Source: Alkalispirochaeta sp. (lineage in GTDB: Bacteria > Spirochaetota > Spirochaetia > DSM-27196 > Alkalispirochaetaceae). From it: 64,000 bases of DNA. Under the pieces are notes generated by a model. It saw only the letters and a program-made list of their open reading frames with translations. It had not been told where the DNA came from and made no database searches. The position numbers and the translations under genes were made by a program. The stretch covers positions 1,408,001 to 1,472,000 of the forward strand of contig OZ271854.1 in NCBI GenBank assembly GCA_965601925.1. The letters are read 5' to 3'. Within the stretch, counting starts at the first letter, position 1. Every line of letters starts with the position of its first letter. Below are positions 12,435 through 18,973 of the stretch, piece after piece.

Positions 12435-12836
12435 CTACTCCGCCTCTATGCGGTAGAGGGTACCCTCCCAGATCGCGAAAACGGTGTTCTCCACACTCGC
12501 GATCGCCGTGGTACCGCTCCATCCGCGTCCCACCTCAGTGTAGTTGCCGTCTCCGTCGACGCGATAGAGCGCGTCACCATGTATGATCCAAAGGAAGTCG
12601 TCCGTCGCGGTCATGTGTGTCGTCGCGCCCCAACCGTCGGATATCGCCTCGTAGTTGCCGTCCCCGTCGACGCGATAGAGCGTCTCACCCCACACGATCC
12701 ACAGATAGCCGCCCATCGAGGCCATGGAAGTGCTTTCGTCCCATCCGCCGCCGAGGCTCGTGTAATCTCCCGGTGCGGCGGCAAGTTGTATAGCGGCGCC
12801 GGCGACTACGAGCGTAGTAATCAATAGTCGTTTCAT
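12435..12836 (-). CDS. Small secreted protein with about three 37-aa beta-propeller-blade (tachylectin-like) repeats
   Basis: Signal peptide; repeated GW...LWI..G.TLYRVDGDGNY; DNA repeat with a 111-bp period (12540 and 12651). Confidence 0.75.
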   Translation of the reverse strand: MKRLLITTLVVAGAAIQLAAAPGDYTSLGGGWDESTSMASMGGYLWIVWGETLYRVDGDGNYEAISDGWGATTHMTATDDFLWIIHGDALYRVDGDGNYTEVGRGWSGTTAIASVENTVFAIWEGTLYRIEAE

Positions 12837-12932
12837 GTCGTATCCTCAACGACAATCATACACGGTCATACGATAAAAGCGCGATCGCCATATCCCTTGC
12901 GAACGGGTCGGCGAACGCGTACGATCGGCGGT

Positions 12933-13376
12933 ATGGCCGACTGCAACGGCACCTCGATGTGCTACAAGATTATTCGCCGCTATAAGTACGAGACGACCCG
13001 ACCGTACACGATTCGAACCGCGGTACGGCCGACGGACGCGGCGACCGATTACTACGCATCCGTCGACCCGACCGGCTGTCTGCGTATCATGGAGCGGTAC
13101 CAATGGGACGGGCCCAGCGGACCGACGATCGATACCGAAAACTCGATGCGTGCCGGCTTGGTGCACGACGCGCTCTACCAACTTATGCGCTCCGGGGCGT
13201 TGGAGTCGAGCCGAAAGAATCGCGTTGCTGCGGACAAGACCTTTCGCTCACTTCTGAAGAAAGACGGTATGGGCATCGTGCGGCGCAATCTATGGTATGC
13301 CGTGGTTCGTCTGACGAGCTCCTATTTCACGCGCGCGGGATCCCGGCCGGAGCAAGAGACCATCTGCTTGGATTGA
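12933..13376 (+). CDS. DUF1353-like protein
   Basis: WDGPSGP...AGLVHDALY...ADKTF...DGM...YAVVR pattern; leaderless promoter TTGCGA-N17-TACGAT directly upstream. Confidence 0.7.
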   Translation: MADCNGTSMCYKIIRRYKYETTRPYTIRTAVRPTDAATDYYASVDPTGCLRIMERYQWDGPSGPTIDTENSMRAGLVHDALYQLMRSGALESSRKNRVAADKTFRSLLKKDGMGIVRRNLWYAVVRLTSSYFTRAGSRPEQETICLD

Positions 13377-13806: not shown

Positions 13807-13843
13807 TGCAACCCTTTTTGCCCTTCTCGTGTCCTACTCTTGT
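13807..13843 (+). promoter_or_regulatory. ECF sigma-type promoter, leaderless, upstream of the radical SAM operon
   Basis: TGCAACC-N13-TCGTGTC-ctact-CTTGT-ATG; near-identical copy upstream of the desaturase. Confidence 0.75.
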
Positions 13844-15490
13844 ATGGGGAAGACCGATCCATCGGCTCGGCGGTCCGTCTCTATCTGTGGTACCACCAGA
13901 ATACTGCTCGTATATCCGGAGACTCCGGACACCTATTGGAGTTATCGCCACGCCATCGAGTTCCTGGGAAAGAGGGCGCTCATGCCGCCGCTCGGGTTAT
14001 TGACCGCGGCGGCGATCATGGGAGAGGAGTTCGACTATCACCTAGTAGATATGAACGTGGAATCACTAAAAGAGGATTCCCTGGAGTGGGCGGATTACGT
14101 CTTCATTTCGGCAATGATTGTCCAGGCCGATTCAATGCGCGAGGTGATAGCGAGATGTAACCGCGCGGGAGTGCCCGTAGTTGCCGGGGGTCCCTACCCC
14201 ACGGCCTGTTACAAAGAGATCGACGGTGTGGACCATTTTGTTCTCGGCGAAGGGGAGTGCACGATTCCGGAGTTTCGTCGGGACCTTGCCGAGGGCACCC
14301 TTAAACCGATCTATCCTGCCGGCGAGCGCCCGGAAATCGACAACGTTCCGTTACCGCGTTTCGATCTTTGCAGGATTTCTCGCTACGAAACCATGCCGCT
14401 GCAGTTCTCCCGAGGCTGTCCGTTTAACTGTGAGTTCTGCGACATCGTGTCCCTGTTCGGGCACAAGGTTCGCACAAAGAGCGCGGAGCAGTTTATTCGG
14501 GAAATGGAAGCGCTCCACGACGTCGGGTTTCGAGGCAATCTCTTTGTCGTGGATGATAACTTCATCGGCAATCGGAGACGGGCGAAGGCGTTGCTCAGAC
14601 GCATCCGGGCGTGGCAGTCTGAAAAGGGCTATCCCTTCAATCTGAGTACCGAAGCGAGTATCGATCTTGCCGATGATCGAGAGTTCTTGGATCTCATGGC
14701 GGCTTGCGGCTTCAAGATGGTCTTCGTGGGGCTGGAGACGCCGGTCGAGGCCTCCCTCCAGGGAGCCGGCAAGCGGCAGAACCTCCGAGGGAACGTGGTC
14801 GATAAGGTGCGTCGGATCCAGAGCGCCGGAATCGAGGTAACCGCAGGGTTCATTGTCGGCTTTGACTCCGACCCCGAAGACATTGCCGACCGGCAAATCG
14901 AGTTCATTCAGGAGCTTGGTGTTCCCACGGCGATGGTCGGCCTCTTGACGGCGCTTCCAAATACGAGGCTCTGGGACCGCCTGTCGGAGGAGGGACGAAT
15001 GCGATTCCGCTCAGGCGGCAACAATACCCATACCAGCGAACTGAACTTTACGACTATGTTGCCCCAGAGGGCCGTTGTCGACGGGTACCGAAGGATACTG
15101 GAGACTATCTACAGCCCTCGGCGATACTTCCGGCGCGCCCTGAGGTTGGTCACTTCGCTGCCGCGACGTTCGGTCACTCCGACTCTCTCCGTTCGCGGCC
15201 GGATATCTCAAAACCAAGGTAGGGCGCTCTACCGTTCACTCACTAAACAGGGGCTATCTTCCTACGCATTGTGGTATTGGCTCTTTCTCCTCCGAGCGCT
15301 CCTATCTCGGCCGCGTCTATTTGTCACCGTTGTCACTTTGGCGGTCCGGGGGCACCACTTCTTCGTCATTACCGACAGGCTCGTTCGTAGTATCCGGGGA
15401 GAGAACCGGGAAACGGGCGATACGACCCGAAGCCGTGCAAGGACGCACCGACCGGACCCCCCTCGTGATACACTCATACACGAAGCTTGA
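13844..15490 (+). CDS. B12-binding-domain radical SAM protein (DUF4070/HpnP-like family)
   Basis: MPPLGLLT, VAGGPYPT, GEGE, SRGCPFNCEFC (CxxxCxxC), VDDNFIG and GFIVGFDSD. Confidence 0.92.
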   Translation: MGKTDPSARRSVSICGTTRILLVYPETPDTYWSYRHAIEFLGKRALMPPLGLLTAAAIMGEEFDYHLVDMNVESLKEDSLEWADYVFISAMIVQADSMREVIARCNRAGVPVVAGGPYPTACYKEIDGVDHFVLGEGECTIPEFRRDLAEGTLKPIYPAGERPEIDNVPLPRFDLCRISRYETMPLQFSRGCPFNCEFCDIVSLFGHKVRTKSAEQFIREMEALHDVGFRGNLFVVDDNFIGNRRRAKALLRRIRAWQSEKGYPFNLSTEASIDLADDREFLDLMAACGFKMVFVGLETPVEASLQGAGKRQNLRGNVVDKVRRIQSAGIEVTAGFIVGFDSDPEDIADRQIEFIQELGVPTAMVGLLTALPNTRLWDRLSEEGRMRFRSGGNNTHTSELNFTTMLPQRAVVDGYRRILETIYSPRRYFRRALRLVTSLPRRSVTPTLSVRGRISQNQGRALYRSLTKQGLSSYALWYWLFLLRALLSRPRLFVTVVTLAVRGHHFFVITDRLVRSIRGENRETGDTTRSRARTHRPDPPRDTLIHEA

Positions 15491-15510
15491 TTTTATAGGA
15501 GGTGGCCGCG

Positions 15511-15852
15511 GTGCAGAGCGTTCCGTCCCCGGTGGCTCAGCTCATGATCACGGTGATCCCAATGGTCGGCATTGTTGTCGCCGGCGTCGTGGTATTCTTC
15601 TTTCTGCTCTGGAATCATCGGCAGCGTATGGCCCAAATAGAACGGGGCATGAACCCTCCACCGCTGATCGATTTAGAGCGATTCAGCTTGCTTCTCGGAT
15701 TACTTGCCGTGGCGGTCGGACTGGTACTGACTATCGTTGCTCTCCTGGCGTATCGAGGAGGCTACGGTCTGTTGGGCGGACTCATCCCCCTCGCCGTAGG
15801 CGTGGGGTTTCTCCTCTATTATCGAATCGCTGAGACCAAACGGGGCCGATGA
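15511..15852 (+). CDS. Small 3-TM membrane protein (DUF6249-like) upstream of the ECF sigma
   Basis: TM helix, HRQRMAQIERG, two further TM helices; AGGAGG RBS with GTG at 15511; ATGA overlap with the sigma gene. Confidence 0.7.
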   Translation: MQSVPSPVAQLMITVIPMVGIVVAGVVVFFFLLWNHRQRMAQIERGMNPPPLIDLERFSLLLGLLAVAVGLVLTIVALLAYRGGYGLLGGLIPLAVGVGFLLYYRIAETKRGR

Positions 15853-16436
15853 CGGACGATTCCGGTCGAGACCAGGAGGATTTAGCGGTAATTCGTTCGG
15901 TCTTGGGCGGCGATCGAAACGCCTTTCGCCGGCTGGTCGAGAAGTATCAGCCGGCGGTATCGGCCATCGGAAGGCGAACCGTCACCGCACGGGAGGACCT
16001 CATGGACTATGTCCAAGACGTCTTTTTCAAGAGTTTTGTGCACCTCGGACAGTATTCCGGAAAAGGGCGGTTCTACTCTTGGCTGATGCGAATCGCCTAT
16101 ACCACGGCGATAAACCGGAGCAAGCGCACGATTCCCGAAGTTCCCACCGATCCGGAGTTTCTCGCTCGTCTATGGCACGCCTCTCGAGAGCGAGAGCCGG
16201 ATCGTACGACCGAGCGTAGAGTATTGTGGGAGGCGATTATCGAAGCGATTCGGGAGCTTCCGGGACAGCTCGCCTTCTCTGTGGAGCTCTTTTTCGTACT
16301 GGGGCTTCGGTACCGGGAAATCGCCGAGATGACCGGCGTGCCGGTTAACACCCTCAAATCCCACATTCATCGAGCGCGCCGCTTGCTGCAAGAGCGGTTG
16401 GACCGCTCAATGTTGGAGGATCAGGATGACGTGTAA
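15849..16436 (+). CDS. ECF RNA polymerase sigma factor
   Basis: Region 2 DYVQDVF...FYSWLMRIAYT; region 4 YREIAEMTGVPVNTLKSHIHRAR. Confidence 0.95.
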   Translation: MTDDSGRDQEDLAVIRSVLGGDRNAFRRLVEKYQPAVSAIGRRTVTAREDLMDYVQDVFFKSFVHLGQYSGKGRFYSWLMRIAYTTAINRSKRTIPEVPTDPEFLARLWHASREREPDRTTERRVLWEAIIEAIRELPGQLAFSVELFFVLGLRYREIAEMTGVPVNTLKSHIHRARRLLQERLDRSMLEDQDDV

Positions 16437-16896
16437 CGAAGTTGAGGAACGGCTTCTTGCGCTGGATCACGGCGAAATCCCGGGTGTTGAGGTGGAGGCC
16501 CATCTTTCGAAGTGCCCGAGTTGTCGCCGCCTGGCGCGAACTCTCGCGGTCGCCGAAGGTGGTCTCCGAGAAACGTCGAGGGCCGATCCGGATCTGGTGA
16601 ACTCCGTGATGACCGCAATCGATGAAAGCAACGTCTACCCGACTCGAGCCCACTCGTTTTTTCATTGGCTATTCGGCGGCCTCTTGCTCGTGACCGCTTT
16701 CGTGGCGGTTCGACAGAGCGATCCGTTCCGATTTCTTCTCGATAGTTTTCTAGGACCCCGGGTCGACCTGTCGGTGACGGTAGTCATAGGCATGGGAGTG
16801 GTGGCGTACTTGGCGGTTTTTGTTGTTGCCAACGGTGATCGTTTGGAAGAGGTGGTTCGTAGTGTGGTGAGACGGCACGGCTCCGGAGAGCGGTGA
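16426..16896 (+). CDS. Zinc-finger (ZAS/zf-HC2) membrane anti-sigma factor
   Basis: MTC...HLSKCPSC (HxxxCxxC) followed by two TM segments; overlaps the sigma gene. Confidence 0.88.
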   Translation: MTCNEVEERLLALDHGEIPGVEVEAHLSKCPSCRRLARTLAVAEGGLRETSRADPDLVNSVMTAIDESNVYPTRAHSFFHWLFGGLLLVTAFVAVRQSDPFRFLLDSFLGPRVDLSVTVVIGMGVVAYLAVFVVANGDRLEEVVRSVVRRHGSGER

Positions 16897-16986
16897 AAGA
16901 AGCGGTTTGTCGACGATGTGCTCCGCGAATGCCGTTGCTTGCGGCAGCAGGCAACGGTCGCAGAGCGGAGTTGCCGATACCGGGCT

Positions 16987-18003
16987 TTACGCCGCGGACG
17001 GAGTCGCCTTCCGCAGCGTCCTAAAGCTGATGAGCCGATCGTTCGCTTCGTCCCAGAGATTCATGTTCACCGAGGCAAAACTCCTCTTCACCGTCAGATG
17101 GTCTTTGAGACGTAGTTCGGGTATAGCGTCAAGACAGCGTTGCAGGTTGTAGTTGGGAATACGAGGGCGAAGGTGGTGGACGTGGTGCAGCCCGATGTTG
17201 GCACTAAACCACTGAAACACCTTCGGTAGCTTGTAGTAGGAACTCCCCTCCATGGCGGCGTCTACGGTGTGCCACTCTTCCTCCCGTTTCCAGTATCCGG
17301 GGTCAAACTGATGCTGGACGTAGAAGAGCCAAATTCCCGCCATACCGGCGAAGTACATGATCGGAAGCTGAATGAGTAGATAGGTTCCTAGTCCGATGGT
17401 TACGCTTGCCAGAAGCACGATCGCCGCAATAACGCCGTTTGTGATCCAGACGCTCCGTCTTTGCCGCTTGTTGTCCAGCTTATGCGGTTTTCGCTGAACA
17501 ATCACAAAGAGGAGCAATGGCGCTATGCCGAACATGAAGACCGGATTTCGGTAGATCCTGTAGCCAAGACGTCTCCACCACGGAGAGTCCACGTACTCCT
17601 GGGCGGTTAGCGTCCAAACTTCGCCGATCGTCCGCCGGTCGAGGTTACCGGAGGTGGAATGGTGCACCCCGTGCCCGTGTTGCCAGGATCCGAAGGCGGT
17701 AAAGGTGAGCGTTCCGATTATGTGACCCACGATCCGGTTCGCCTTCCGGCTTGGAAAGAAGGAGCCGTGTGAGCAGTCGTGAAACAGGATAAAAAGCCGC
17801 ACCATGAAGGCCGCCGCCGGAATCGAAAGGAGAACGGTCGTCCACGCGGGATAGTCCGCCCGAACGGATAGATACATGAGCACCACGAGCCCGAGATAGG
17901 GAATGAAAGTATTCGCTAACTGTCGGACGGCTCGCCATGTGACAGGTTTTTCGTACGCTTTGAGCTGAGCAACCCAGCTCGGTTTTTCTTGGTTGCGTTT
18001 CAT
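16987..18003 (-). CDS. Membrane fatty acid (acyl-lipid) desaturase
   Basis: Three His boxes HDCSH, HGVHH and HHVHH; resembles Bacillus Des. Confidence 0.93.
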   Translation of the reverse strand: MKRNQEKPSWVAQLKAYEKPVTWRAVRQLANTFIPYLGLVVLMYLSVRADYPAWTTVLLSIPAAAFMVRLFILFHDCSHGSFFPSRKANRIVGHIIGTLTFTAFGSWQHGHGVHHSTSGNLDRRTIGEVWTLTAQEYVDSPWWRRLGYRIYRNPVFMFGIAPLLLFVIVQRKPHKLDNKRQRRSVWITNGVIAAIVLLASVTIGLGTYLLIQLPIMYFAGMAGIWLFYVQHQFDPGYWKREEEWHTVDAAMEGSSYYKLPKVFQWFSANIGLHHVHHLRPRIPNYNLQRCLDAIPELRLKDHLTVKRSFASVNMNLWDEANDRLISFRTLRKATPSAA

Positions 18004-18039
18004 ACAAGGTACAGACACGAAAAATGTTATTTGGTTGCA
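18004..18039 (-). promoter_or_regulatory. ECF sigma-type promoter, leaderless, upstream of the desaturase
   Basis: Minus strand reads TGCAACC-N12-TCGTGTC-tgtac-CTTGT-ATG. Confidence 0.75.
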
Positions 18040-18138
18040 CTAATTCGGAAGATCAAGCGGTTCCTCAGGAGGCCGCTGAACCAAGGGAACACGTCTCCAA
18101 CGGACGAGGACGGCGCACCGCGATTAGTGTGAGAGGCG

Positions 18139-18855
18139 CTACAGGTCGCGTCTGGTGTGAAGTGTATGGATGGGTTCGTCGCTGCGCGGCGCGGAGCCTA
18201 CCGCAAGGCGGCACATGTATGTGCCGACCTCCTCGGCCGAAAGCCACTCATCGACCACCTGCGCATCGCGAACCCGCGTCTTGAGCGGGTTAAAGGCGAC
18301 GATCGAGTATACTCTTACCGCTGTGCCGCGCGCCTCCACGTCCAATACCTTGGCCATCATTTTCTGTGCCGCGGCGACGATCGATATCACGCCGGCCTCC
18401 GGCGCCACGATCTCGGACGCTCCCCCGTTGAGCATGATATAGGTACCGTGCTTCTGCTGATGAAAGAGTGAGAGAAAGGCGCGCATGAAGAGAAAGTGGG
18501 TGTTGAGATTGTCGTTCAGTACCCGCTGCCAGTCGGCAAAGGGCATGTGGTGGAGACTGTAGCCGTAGTACCAATCGCCGATCGTCGCAACGGCGATATC
18601 GACCCTCTCAAAGCGGCTTATCACCTGAGTTCGTAACCGACCGACCGACTCCTCCTCACCGACGAATGCCGGAATGCACACCAAGCGCTCGGCGAGTGGC
18701 TCTCCGACGTACTCGGCAAGTCTGTCTCGCTTCCCCTCGCTCCGTGTCGGCACCACGACCGTCGCCCCATCGTTCAGGAACGAGTGTACGATTCCCTCGC
18801 CGACGCTCCCCGTCCCGCCGGCCACGACCGCGACCTTACCGTCCAATATGCCCAT
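18139..18855 (-). CDS. SDR family oxidoreductase (atypical active site)
   Basis: VAVVAGGTGSVGEG Rossmann motif; no canonical YxxxK; GGAGG RBS and TATAAT upstream. Confidence 0.8.
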   Translation of the reverse strand: MGILDGKVAVVAGGTGSVGEGIVHSFLNDGATVVVPTRSEGKRDRLAEYVGEPLAERLVCIPAFVGEEESVGRLRTQVISRFERVDIAVATIGDWYYGYSLHHMPFADWQRVLNDNLNTHFLFMRAFLSLFHQQKHGTYIMLNGGASEIVAPEAGVISIVAAAQKMMAKVLDVEARGTAVRVYSIVAFNPLKTRVRDAQVVDEWLSAEEVGTYMCRLAVGSAPRSDEPIHTLHTRRDL

Positions 18856-18973
18856 GCGCGTCCTCCCCGGTACCCTATGTAGCATTATAGTCCCGCGCCG
18901 GTCTCCGTGCGAGGATTAGTTCCCGGCGGGCGTCGCCGCCGGAGCGACGTCGATCGGCGTTATATTTCTCACT

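Follow-up and report, generated by a model that had tools for sequence, protein, structure and literature searches.

A promoter-like element shared by an ECF sigma factor operon and lipid-type enzyme genes: a likely membrane-remodelling switch in spirochaetes

The locus and its two predicted promoter elements

The window (the whole 64-kb stretch of Alkalispirochaeta sp. contig OZ271854.1 that was analysed) harbors two convergent units, one with the genes for an HpnP-like radical SAM enzyme, a DUF6249 protein, an ECF sigma factor and a predicted anti-sigma factor, and the other with a desaturase gene (Table 1). The identities that a previous sequence-only reading had proposed for these products were borne out by domain matches. 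The radical SAM protein matched the B12-binding, radical SAM and DUF4070 domains, and it carries a CPFNCEFC cluster motif (CxxxCxxC) and C-terminal helices that are basic and hydrophobic. The desaturase gave the sole FA_desaturase match in the genome, with three His boxes and membrane helices present, and its score of 388 bits against DesA NF052548 lies below the equivalog cut-off of 500 for Delta-5 DesA. The DUF6249 gene has an alternative start (GTG 15502; 116 aa), and its stop overlaps the sigma ATG. As for the anti-sigma factor, the zf-HC2 match was just below the cut-off (21.6 versus 22.2 bits), with HxxxCxxC present (C3..H26xxxC30xxC33) both here and in 45 of 45 extracted orthologues; two membrane helices (residues 77-95 and 117-135, approximately) flank a loop of some 20 residues. 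The hairpin between both units (z -4.4; none of 200 shuffles equally stable) has no U-tract and was absent from the terminator-scan list, and is a candidate for a shared terminator or 3' stabiliser. Scans of the sigma-70 promoter and terminator type yielded nothing exceeding chance.

Table 1. Features of the locus, numbered from the first nucleotide of the window
Feature	Position	Strand	Characteristics
Predicted ECF promoter 1	13807..13833	+	TGCAACC-N13-TCGTGTC; -35 TGCAAC 13807-13812, -10 GTGTC 13829-13833
HpnP-like B12-binding / radical SAM / DUF4070 enzyme, 548 aa	13844..15490	+	
DUF6249 protein, 113 aa, three hydrophobic helices	15511..15852	+	GTG 8 nt behind AGGAGG
ECF sigma factor, 195 aa, regions 2 and 4 only	15849..16436	+	Sigma r2 and r4_2 matches
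Predicted anti-sigma factor, ZAS-type, 156 aa	16426..16896	+	Zinc motif and membrane helices
Strong hairpin between convergent units	16897..16986	.	Core stem about 16931-16961
Membrane fatty-acid desaturase, DesA-like, 338 aa	16987..18003	-	His boxes HDCSH, HGVHH, HHVHH
Predicted ECF promoter 2	18014..18039	-	TGCAACC-N12-TCGTGTC (18039-18014); GCAAC-N17-GTC

The two matching elements described earlier upstream of these units were re-found with the same sequences, positions and spacing, promoter 1 having the core GCAAC-N18-GTC. In both copies, N5-CTTGT separates the element from an ATG located 10 nt downstream (13844 and 18003), which gives 19 identical positions (7+7+5) ahead of the start codon, and, as had been noted, the ribosome-binding site is missing, with no SD-like word between motif and ATG. 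The exact element occurred twice in the window and in none of 100 shuffles, and the whole genome (5,053,413 bp) contained it only at these two sites. When a position weight matrix was applied to the genome, 31 sites reached at least 16 bits and promoter 1 obtained the best score; among the 60 best sites, only the two named promoters had an ATG- or GTG-started ORF of at least 80 aa within 11 nt, in line with the small regulon proposed before. Local homologues of trhA, acyl-CoA ligase, aminotransferase and a second radical SAM gene were considered as further members and discarded, as they had no motif.

The distance to the start codon was also compared among 46 motif-bearing genes. It was 9-12 nt from the GTC in 13 of them and at least 18 nt in the other 33, 31 of which had an SD-like word. 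This division, together with the geometry of both elements, makes leaderless mRNAs likely in Alkalispirochaeta, and we expect with good confidence that both units are transcribed in this form, as the sequence-only reading had suggested. Predicted leaderless mRNAs also represent genes that gene callers shorten: the radical SAM ORF comprises 548 aa from ATG 13844 and 502 aa in the database gene call.

Conservation of the motif and of its gene context

Loose versions of the motif (TGCAAC-N13-15-SGTGTC) were present in 50 of 61 genomes irrespective of whether they bear the sigma factor. Genome scans of this kind were therefore discarded as uninformative about the regulon, and the motif was taken as evidence only by its position upstream of orthologues. 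Such a position was found in 12 of the 17 sigma loci without an adjacent HpnP-like gene, which is indicative of autoregulation. Outside of this sample, the motif lay within 260 nt of the DUF6249 gene in 48 of 72 metagenome loci, whereas the opposite strand gave 1 of 72.

A matrix trained solely on those 12 sites was then used with a threshold of 14 bits. Where a radical SAM gene adjoins the sigma gene, its upstream region reached this value in 12/17 and 13/17 loci (25/34 together). The same held for 3 of 68 homologues in loci without sigma, for 8 of 13 desaturases from sigma-bearing genomes, for 0 of 22 desaturases from genomes that gave no sigma match, and for 7 of 3080 shuffles; both the 12/17 and the 8/13 include the Alkalispirochaeta genome itself. 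Radical SAM genes of the same clade that are not sigma-adjacent scored below 14 bits in 10 of 14 cases. Where an unlinked radical SAM gene had the motif (four genomes, one at the threshold), the sigma factor was encoded elsewhere in all four, and it was present in one of the six genomes whose unlinked gene had no motif. In an order-wide pattern scan of 99 genomes, 15 of 27 matches open a radical SAM (9) or a desaturase (6) gene, the remaining 12 being comparable to 14 control matches. These data support the earlier proposal that one type of predicted, autoregulated ECF promoter serves both units.

With regard to the genes behind the motif, 63 sites of at least 15 bits were found in 68 sigma-centred loci. 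They preceded HpnP-like (21), DUF6249 (20), second B12 radical SAM (7), desaturase (3), sigma (3), acyl-CoA ligase-like (2), TrhA (2), DUF6051 (1), GDSL hydrolase (1) and other (3) genes. The lipid link proposed for the regulon is supported by this bias towards lipid-type genes behind the motif in other spirochaetes; the bias was tallied near sigma genes only, and of the 37 cargo sites, 28 belong to radical SAM genes, for which a role in lipid metabolism is still the hypothesis. The desaturases of the other 5 of the 13 sigma-bearing genomes had no motif (one was a near miss at 11.3 bits), and those with it fell into just three supported tree groups, the joining of which is unsettled; accordingly, they represent one to three gains and not eight independent cases.

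The five genes had been expected to remain neighbours, and this did not hold: the intact block was found in none of 60 relatives, so it was rejected as a conserved unit, and the desaturase is optional and may be linked or unlinked. The four-gene operon was conserved in 16 of 21 cases. The radical SAM gene was present in 19 of the 60 relatives, all of them with the sigma factor, and in none of the 39 relatives without it. A desaturase was found in only 7 of these 19, and G019 and G020 had a desaturase without the radical SAM gene; the genomes compared were 74-99% complete. Furthermore, the same operon slot is occupied by the desaturase in the sigma cassettes of G019, G351 and G352, and by the radical SAM gene in those of G003, G016, G356 and G357. 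Most metagenome sigma loci had no enzyme at the operon head, with an HpnP-like gene in 5 of 80. Similarly, the full gene set anticipated at sigma loci was not general, since the DUF6249 and anti-sigma genes were jointly missing on several branches, which indicates that the sensor is dispensable in those genomes. Downstream of the anti-sigma gene, no conserved genes were evident among 32 extracted ORFs; in a single, uncounted case (locus L218), a pair of SDR and serine-palmitoyltransferase-like genes was located there.

Predicted mechanism and alternative explanations

The best explanation as a whole, to which we assign a probability of roughly 0.6, is that the ECF sigma factor switches on its own operon together with two predicted lipid-remodelling enzymes via the repeated element; as judged from sequence comparison, the conserved promoter-like element, the sigma factor and the lipid-type enzyme genes likely form a membrane-remodelling switch of spirochaetes. 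GCAAC-N17/18-GTC, which lies ahead of the HpnP-like gene, of the operon for DUF6249, sigma and anti-sigma and, in part of the lineages, of the desaturase gene, is very probably the -35/-10 promoter read by the neighbouring sigma, which would fire after release from the predicted membrane anti-sigma factor. An unstudied ECF family of spirochaetes, with T. denticola among its hosts, would thereby gain a defined promoter. The zinc-binding, two-helix anti-sigma factor, almost devoid of an outside domain, would act with the DUF6249 protein, and the odds are about even that both jointly read a signal in the bilayer. DUF6249 would thereby receive a role, next to the anti-sigma factor, that lends itself to testing. 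Lipid remodelling is the probable output. Within it, the radical SAM enzyme may use SAM and cobalamin to methylate the chain of a membrane lipid at an unactivated carbon, an O2-independent route that would run parallel to the O2-dependent desaturase; this is our best guess for the enzyme, held at somewhat less than even odds. More tentative, and unlikely in its complete form, is a membrane-homeostasis circuit with DUF6249 and the two-helix anti-sigma as its intramembrane sensor, in which the HpnP-like enzyme, as an O2-independent acyl/alkyl-chain methylase, would do without oxygen the work that the desaturase does with it.

Several observations bear on the substrate of the radical SAM enzyme. 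B12-binding proteins are encoded in the Alkalispirochaeta genome. Squalene-hopene cyclase was not found in this genome (96.7% complete) and, in the 60 relatives, only as partial matches of 80 residues in two of them, which argues against a hopanoid methylase in vivo. The best solved structural matches had about 20% identity, and fold searches retrieved only generic B12 radical SAM neighbours, with no characterised enzyme close. The enzyme shares the B12-binding, radical SAM and DUF4070 architecture of HpnP, the hopanoid C-2 methylase; it differs in its tie to an ECF regulon, for which we found no reported counterpart. In the tree of HpnP-like clades in PMC10697835, taken as text, a sequence from the Spirochaetaceae whose N-terminus is of the same type stands among the rows not labelled HpnP. 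That source describes HpnP-like proteins as widespread, with activity and substrate not known; their co-regulation and slot exchange with the desaturase are an independent pointer to membrane lipids. If true, an O2-independent chain methylase would provide a function for a large orphan family, found in anaerobes, Acidobacteria and Chloroflexota (at least 8000 candidates scored, 8000 of 8000 at E ≤1e-50), and a candidate route to mid-chain methylated lipids in hopanoid-free bacteria.

A real regulon could also serve a general envelope-stress response, with a non-lipid target of the HpnP-like enzyme (surface glycan, cofactor or protein) and a desaturase recruited late in particular lineages. This would fit the solved radical SAM neighbours, whose substrates are peptides, sugars, proteins and tRNA, and the presence of the motif on the desaturase in at most three lineages. 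We nevertheless regard it as unlikely, given that HpnP, which among characterised families comes nearest in domain architecture, methylates a membrane lipid (PMC10697835, PMC13459092), that the other motif-led genes encode desaturase, acyl-CoA ligase-like, TrhA, GDSL and DUF6051 proteins, and that desaturase and radical SAM genes exchange the operon slot.

It is less probable still that the signal is O2 or thiol oxidation at the anti-sigma zinc site rather than the state of the bilayer, lipid changes following O2 exposure in an anaerobe. The invariance of C3, H26, C30 and C33 across 42 aligned anti-sigma factors speaks for oxidation, but the membrane residues W81, G85, G122 and Y128 are likewise conserved, and in membrane-bound ZAS proteins, RsiW among them, the zinc site usually has a structural role. 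Desaturases of the membrane FA_desaturase family need O2, no bd or heme-copper terminal oxidase was found in the Alkalispirochaeta genome, and P. gingivalis RpoE, with the DUF6249 gene PG1662 nearby, acts under oxidative stress; these points agree with an oxidative signal. However, the Fe-S and cobalamin chemistry of radical SAM enzymes is O2-sensitive and fits poorly with co-induction by O2.

Very improbable is a single pathway in which the radical SAM enzyme modifies the double bond made by the desaturase, yielding a methyl branch or ring: both genes carry the motif in Alkalispirochaeta, G021, G027, G035 and G060 (and in G059, the radical SAM site being weaker), but the desaturase is missing from most relatives that carry the radical SAM gene, and it occurs alone in G019 and G020. 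Finally, it is scarcely credible that the element arose by recent local duplication, or serves another regulator, and has nothing to do with the neighbouring sigma: loose motif versions are common and, with 16 sigma region-2 matches in the genome, a different sigma factor could recognise this site, but spacing (17/18 nt), orientation and position before the sigma operon are fixed across classes, the motif is absent from all 22 desaturases whose genomes gave no sigma match, and the predicted ECF21, ECF51 and ECF279 promoters resemble it.

Relation to known systems

A desaturase controlled through a membrane sensor is known from B. subtilis DesK/DesR-des, which the predicted control of the DesA-like desaturase recalls; in Alkalispirochaeta, by contrast, control would be exerted by a sigma/anti-sigma pair with the radical SAM gene as main partner, and neither histidine kinase nor response regulator was found among the genes at 13844-18885. 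That ECF sigma factors can govern lipid composition is already known, which limits the surprise: P. aeruginosa SigX (PMC3875570) and B. subtilis SigW (as cited there) alter fatty-acid composition and membrane fluidity. As far as that source extends, both act on genes of fatty-acid synthesis (fabF, FAS enzymes) and the SigX operon has no cognate anti-sigma factor, whereas the Alkalispirochaeta targets would modify or handle finished chains.

Among the closest described groups is ECF252 subgroup s5 of Treponema (Casas-Pastor et al. 2021, PMC7826278), characterized in the accessible text by an anti-sigma factor at +1 with two membrane helices and a zinc finger, features found in the Treponema orthologues. 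Orthologues named as T. denticola and T. putidum sigma factors (32% identity) lie in the same DUF6249-sigma-anti-sigma operon. In contrast, the group promoter, itself a prediction, is AAA (-35)/TTG (-10) and differs from GCAAC/GTC, and the context given there is the anti-sigma factor only, while the spirochaete loci studied here have enzyme cargo. Among other groups, ECF279 has a two-helix DUF5056 anti-sigma factor and a TTGCAA/CGTCTAA promoter, and the B. fragilis clsB region contains DUF5056, DUF6249 and a sigma; the predicted ECF21 (GCAACC/CGTCT) and ECF51 (GCAACCG/GCGTGTC) promoters are similar to the motif; and P. gingivalis RpoE belongs to ECF251. These four groups are from other phyla and have other anti-sigma factors, and the portions of their group descriptions searched list no desaturase or HpnP-like target. 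Likewise, the accessible literature on ECF classification, DUF6249, DUF4070 radical SAM and HpnP-like proteins, lipid methylases, ECF factors with desaturases, and T. denticola ECF loci held no description of this regulon.

A further likeness concerns TrhA/PAQR proteins. In E. coli, trhA is a member of the unsaturated fatty-acid regulon and, according to PMC9017321, TrhA affects membrane energetics and not fluidity, so that trhA supports the lipid link but not a fluidity role. As a general regulon member in the order, trhA was rejected (motif directly upstream in 0 of 30 loci); in some spirochaetes it does lie behind the motif (three T. denticola-group genomes) or behind the desaturase gene (G027 and G035).

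The paired elements and the sigma operon

Both promoter-like elements of the sequence-only reading were found at the positions proposed for them, and domain scans bore out the identities of the five genes. The full element, TGCAACC-N12/13-TCGTGTC, had two copies in the window, none in 100 shuffles and two in the entire 5.05-Mb genome. The convergent units are separated by a hairpin (z -4.4). The family was placed in Spirochaetota by the names and titles of related records. Nearby, a DUF1353 gene is divergent from the gene of a 133-aa protein that matches no Pfam family, contains an internal repeat and begins with a signal-like sequence; this pair is unrelated to the sigma regulon as far as seen.

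Coordinates of features in the window and in loci of other genomes
Feature	Locus	Position	Strand
Element before radical SAM operon	window	13807-13833	+
Element before desaturase	window	18039-18014	-
Radical SAM, DUF6249, sigma and anti-sigma genes	window	13844-16896	+
Desaturase gene	window	16987-18003	-
133-aa protein	window	12435-12836	-
DUF1353 gene	window	12897-13376	+
trhA	L271	1723-2411	
Acyl-CoA ligase-like gene, DUF6249-sigma operon	L250	4341-6084	
SDR and serine-palmitoyltransferase-like gene	L218	693-2751	
Motif and 20-codon ORF	L389 (G004:C12)	25-120	

We infer that the shorter motif GCAAC-N17/18-GTC is the sigma's own promoter. It was present upstream in 12 of the 17 sigma loci that have no HpnP-like gene next to them, and a matrix built from these 12 sites was applied with a threshold of 14 bits, leaving out loci with <100 nt upstream. 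Sigma-adjacent radical SAM genes scored at least 14 bits in 12/17 and 13/17 loci, same-clade genes unlinked to sigma in 4/14, distant paralogues in 0/3 and homologues without sigma in the locus in 3/68. The sigma lay elsewhere in the four genomes whose no-sigma-in-locus radical SAM gene carries the motif (one at threshold), and in one of six comparable motif-less genomes, where a different radical SAM copy precedes it. In out-of-sample metagenome DUF6249 loci (72 of 80 fetched, those with at least 200 nt upstream), the motif occurred within 260 nt in 48/72 and on the opposite strand in 1/72; a radical SAM gene intervenes in five of the 24 loci lacking it. The motif resembles the predicted promoters of ECF21, ECF51 and ECF279.

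In the T. denticola group (L224, L252-L254, L271), the DUF6249-sigma-anti-sigma genes come after mscS and fliL-like genes. No motif match was found directly upstream of them in the loci checked, and autoregulation may therefore have been lost there.

Gene order and membership of the regulon

The five genes did not stay neighbours, the complete set being found in none of 60 relatives; these genomes are incomplete and akin to one another, so that absence means "not found" and counts are not independent. Matches to the sigma were obtained in 21/60, to the radical SAM gene in 19/60 and to the desaturase in 14/60. Every one of the 19 relatives with the radical SAM gene also has the sigma, and in the 39 that lack sigma this gene was never found at the threshold used. 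Among the 21 sigma-bearing relatives, the radical SAM gene adjoins sigma in 18, the gene order radical SAM-DUF6249-sigma-anti-sigma is kept in 16, and the desaturase adjoins sigma in three. The four-gene operon extends to other classes: sigma lies about 2 kb downstream of the radical SAM gene in 11/80 GTDB loci, mostly titled Spirochaetota or Leptospirales. Either enzyme can precede sigma in reduced cassettes, the desaturase in G019, G351 (whose upstream region reads N) and G352, and the radical SAM gene in G003, G016, G356 and G357. In L039 (G053) and L419 (G357), the radical SAM gene aligns as two or three frame-shifted pieces, through decay or assembly error.

The desaturase is a true yet optional member of the regulon. 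Its upstream DNA scored for the motif in 8/13 sigma-bearing genomes (source genome included), four of these genes being unlinked to sigma, and in 0/22 genomes without a sigma match. Desaturase matches were obtained in 31 other genomes of the class, and upstream DNA was covered for 21 of them. The desaturases that carry the motif fall into three supported groups around an open fork, which amounts to one to three gains. An order-wide motif-plus-ATG scan of 99 genomes gave 27 sites, of which nine open the radical SAM gene, six the desaturase and 12 neither (14 in a reversed control); since only three of the 15 enzyme sites came from genomes not seen before, it mainly serves as a test against a third common target in this order.

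At a cut-off of 15 bits, 63 sites were counted in 68 sigma-centred loci (554 kb), preceding these genes: HpnP-like (21), DUF6249 (20, most training sites among them), a second, BchE-like B12 radical SAM without DUF4070 (7), desaturase (3), sigma (3), acyl-CoA ligase-like (2), TrhA (2), DUF6051 (1), GDSL hydrolase (1) and other (3). The BchE-like enzyme is ~26% identical to the window's; its gene and a related sigma unit are arranged divergently in nine loci (L236, L243, L246, L248, L262, L263, L266, L268, L269), and in most of these the region between them carries the motif on each strand.

The motif lies 9-12 nt before the ATG of trhA (PAQR family) in three T. denticola-group genomes (L271, L253, L254), and trhA comes after the desaturase in G027 and G035. 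General membership is counted against by the motif's absence directly upstream in all 30 trhA loci of this order and by the role of E. coli TrhA, which PMC9017321 assigns to energetics, not fluidity. trhA is also divergent from DUF6249 in L304, L349 and L351. In two family f45 genomes (L250, L256), the motif is followed by a DUF6249-sigma operon whose first gene is acyl-CoA ligase-like. In L218 (G100), an SDR gene and a serine-palmitoyltransferase-like gene lie directly 3' of the anti-sigma; the gene behind the motif there encodes 124 aa and belongs to no known family.

The HpnP-like enzyme and known lipid systems

The radical SAM enzyme has HpnP architecture by domain scan and a confident structure model (pLDDT 90), with distant solved relatives only. 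Its basic and hydrophobic C-terminal helices may resemble those of membrane-docking proteins. In Hoshino et al. (PMC10697835), HpnP-like clades without known activity are described, and the supplement places a similar Spirochaetaceae sequence outside HpnP-labelled rows. A hopanoid system was rejected as the identity of the regulon; squalene-hopene cyclase was not found in the source genome and gave only two partial matches (80 residues) in relatives. The outline, abstract and passages of a review from 2026 on radical SAM enzymes that modify lipids (PMC13459092) cover HpnP, HpnR and the archaeal chain methylase Gmm, and name no bacterial acyl-chain methylase. Our best guess, at somewhat below even odds, is that the enzyme methylates a chain. 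As only 7/19 relatives with its gene have the desaturase, the two enzymes would act in parallel, not in sequence. With one desaturase, three B12-binding matches and no bd or heme-copper oxidase match, the source genome fits an anaerobe keeping both O2-free and O2-dependent routes.

The system is not DesKR, to which it had been likened in purpose. It would function like an ECF lipid-remodelling regulon. Lipid composition is already known to be under ECF control by SigX and SigW (PMC3875570). What is new is the predicted promoter of a spirochaete sigma family with its cargo of lipid-type genes, and the linking of an orphan HpnP-like enzyme to a desaturase by shared regulation; no prior description of promoter, cargo or link was found in the literature searched.

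Candidate sensor and start codons

The anti-sigma and DUF6249 proteins are a candidate sensor. In the anti-sigma alignment, C3, H26, C30, C33 and W81 are invariant, and two membrane helices are joined by a short loop; the DUF6249 protein is three helices and little more. Both are gone at reduced loci, which are spread over four or more branches of the sigma tree (quick method). Genome-wide profile searches of genomes 80-94% complete found neither in G003, G016, G019 or G020, and in G021 DUF6249 is retained where a contig ends, behind the radical SAM gene. This joint loss suggests that the two work together and shows that the circuit can exist without them.

E. coli sigma-E promoters have GTC at -12 to -10, and by this geometry +1 would fall 9-10 nt past GTC. 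The start codon lies 9-12 nt past GTC in 13 of 46 motif-bearing genes, at 13-17 nt in none and at least 18 nt away in 33, 31 of which have an SD-like word. Leaderless mRNAs are thus predicted for the genes with the 9-12-nt distance. The database call for the radical SAM gene (502 aa) starts 46 residues late, omitting residues 21-33 although these are nearly invariant. In the closest relative (L389), the full motif precedes a leaderless 20-codon ORF and then, where the contig ends, an SD with another ATG; this may be a further regulon member.
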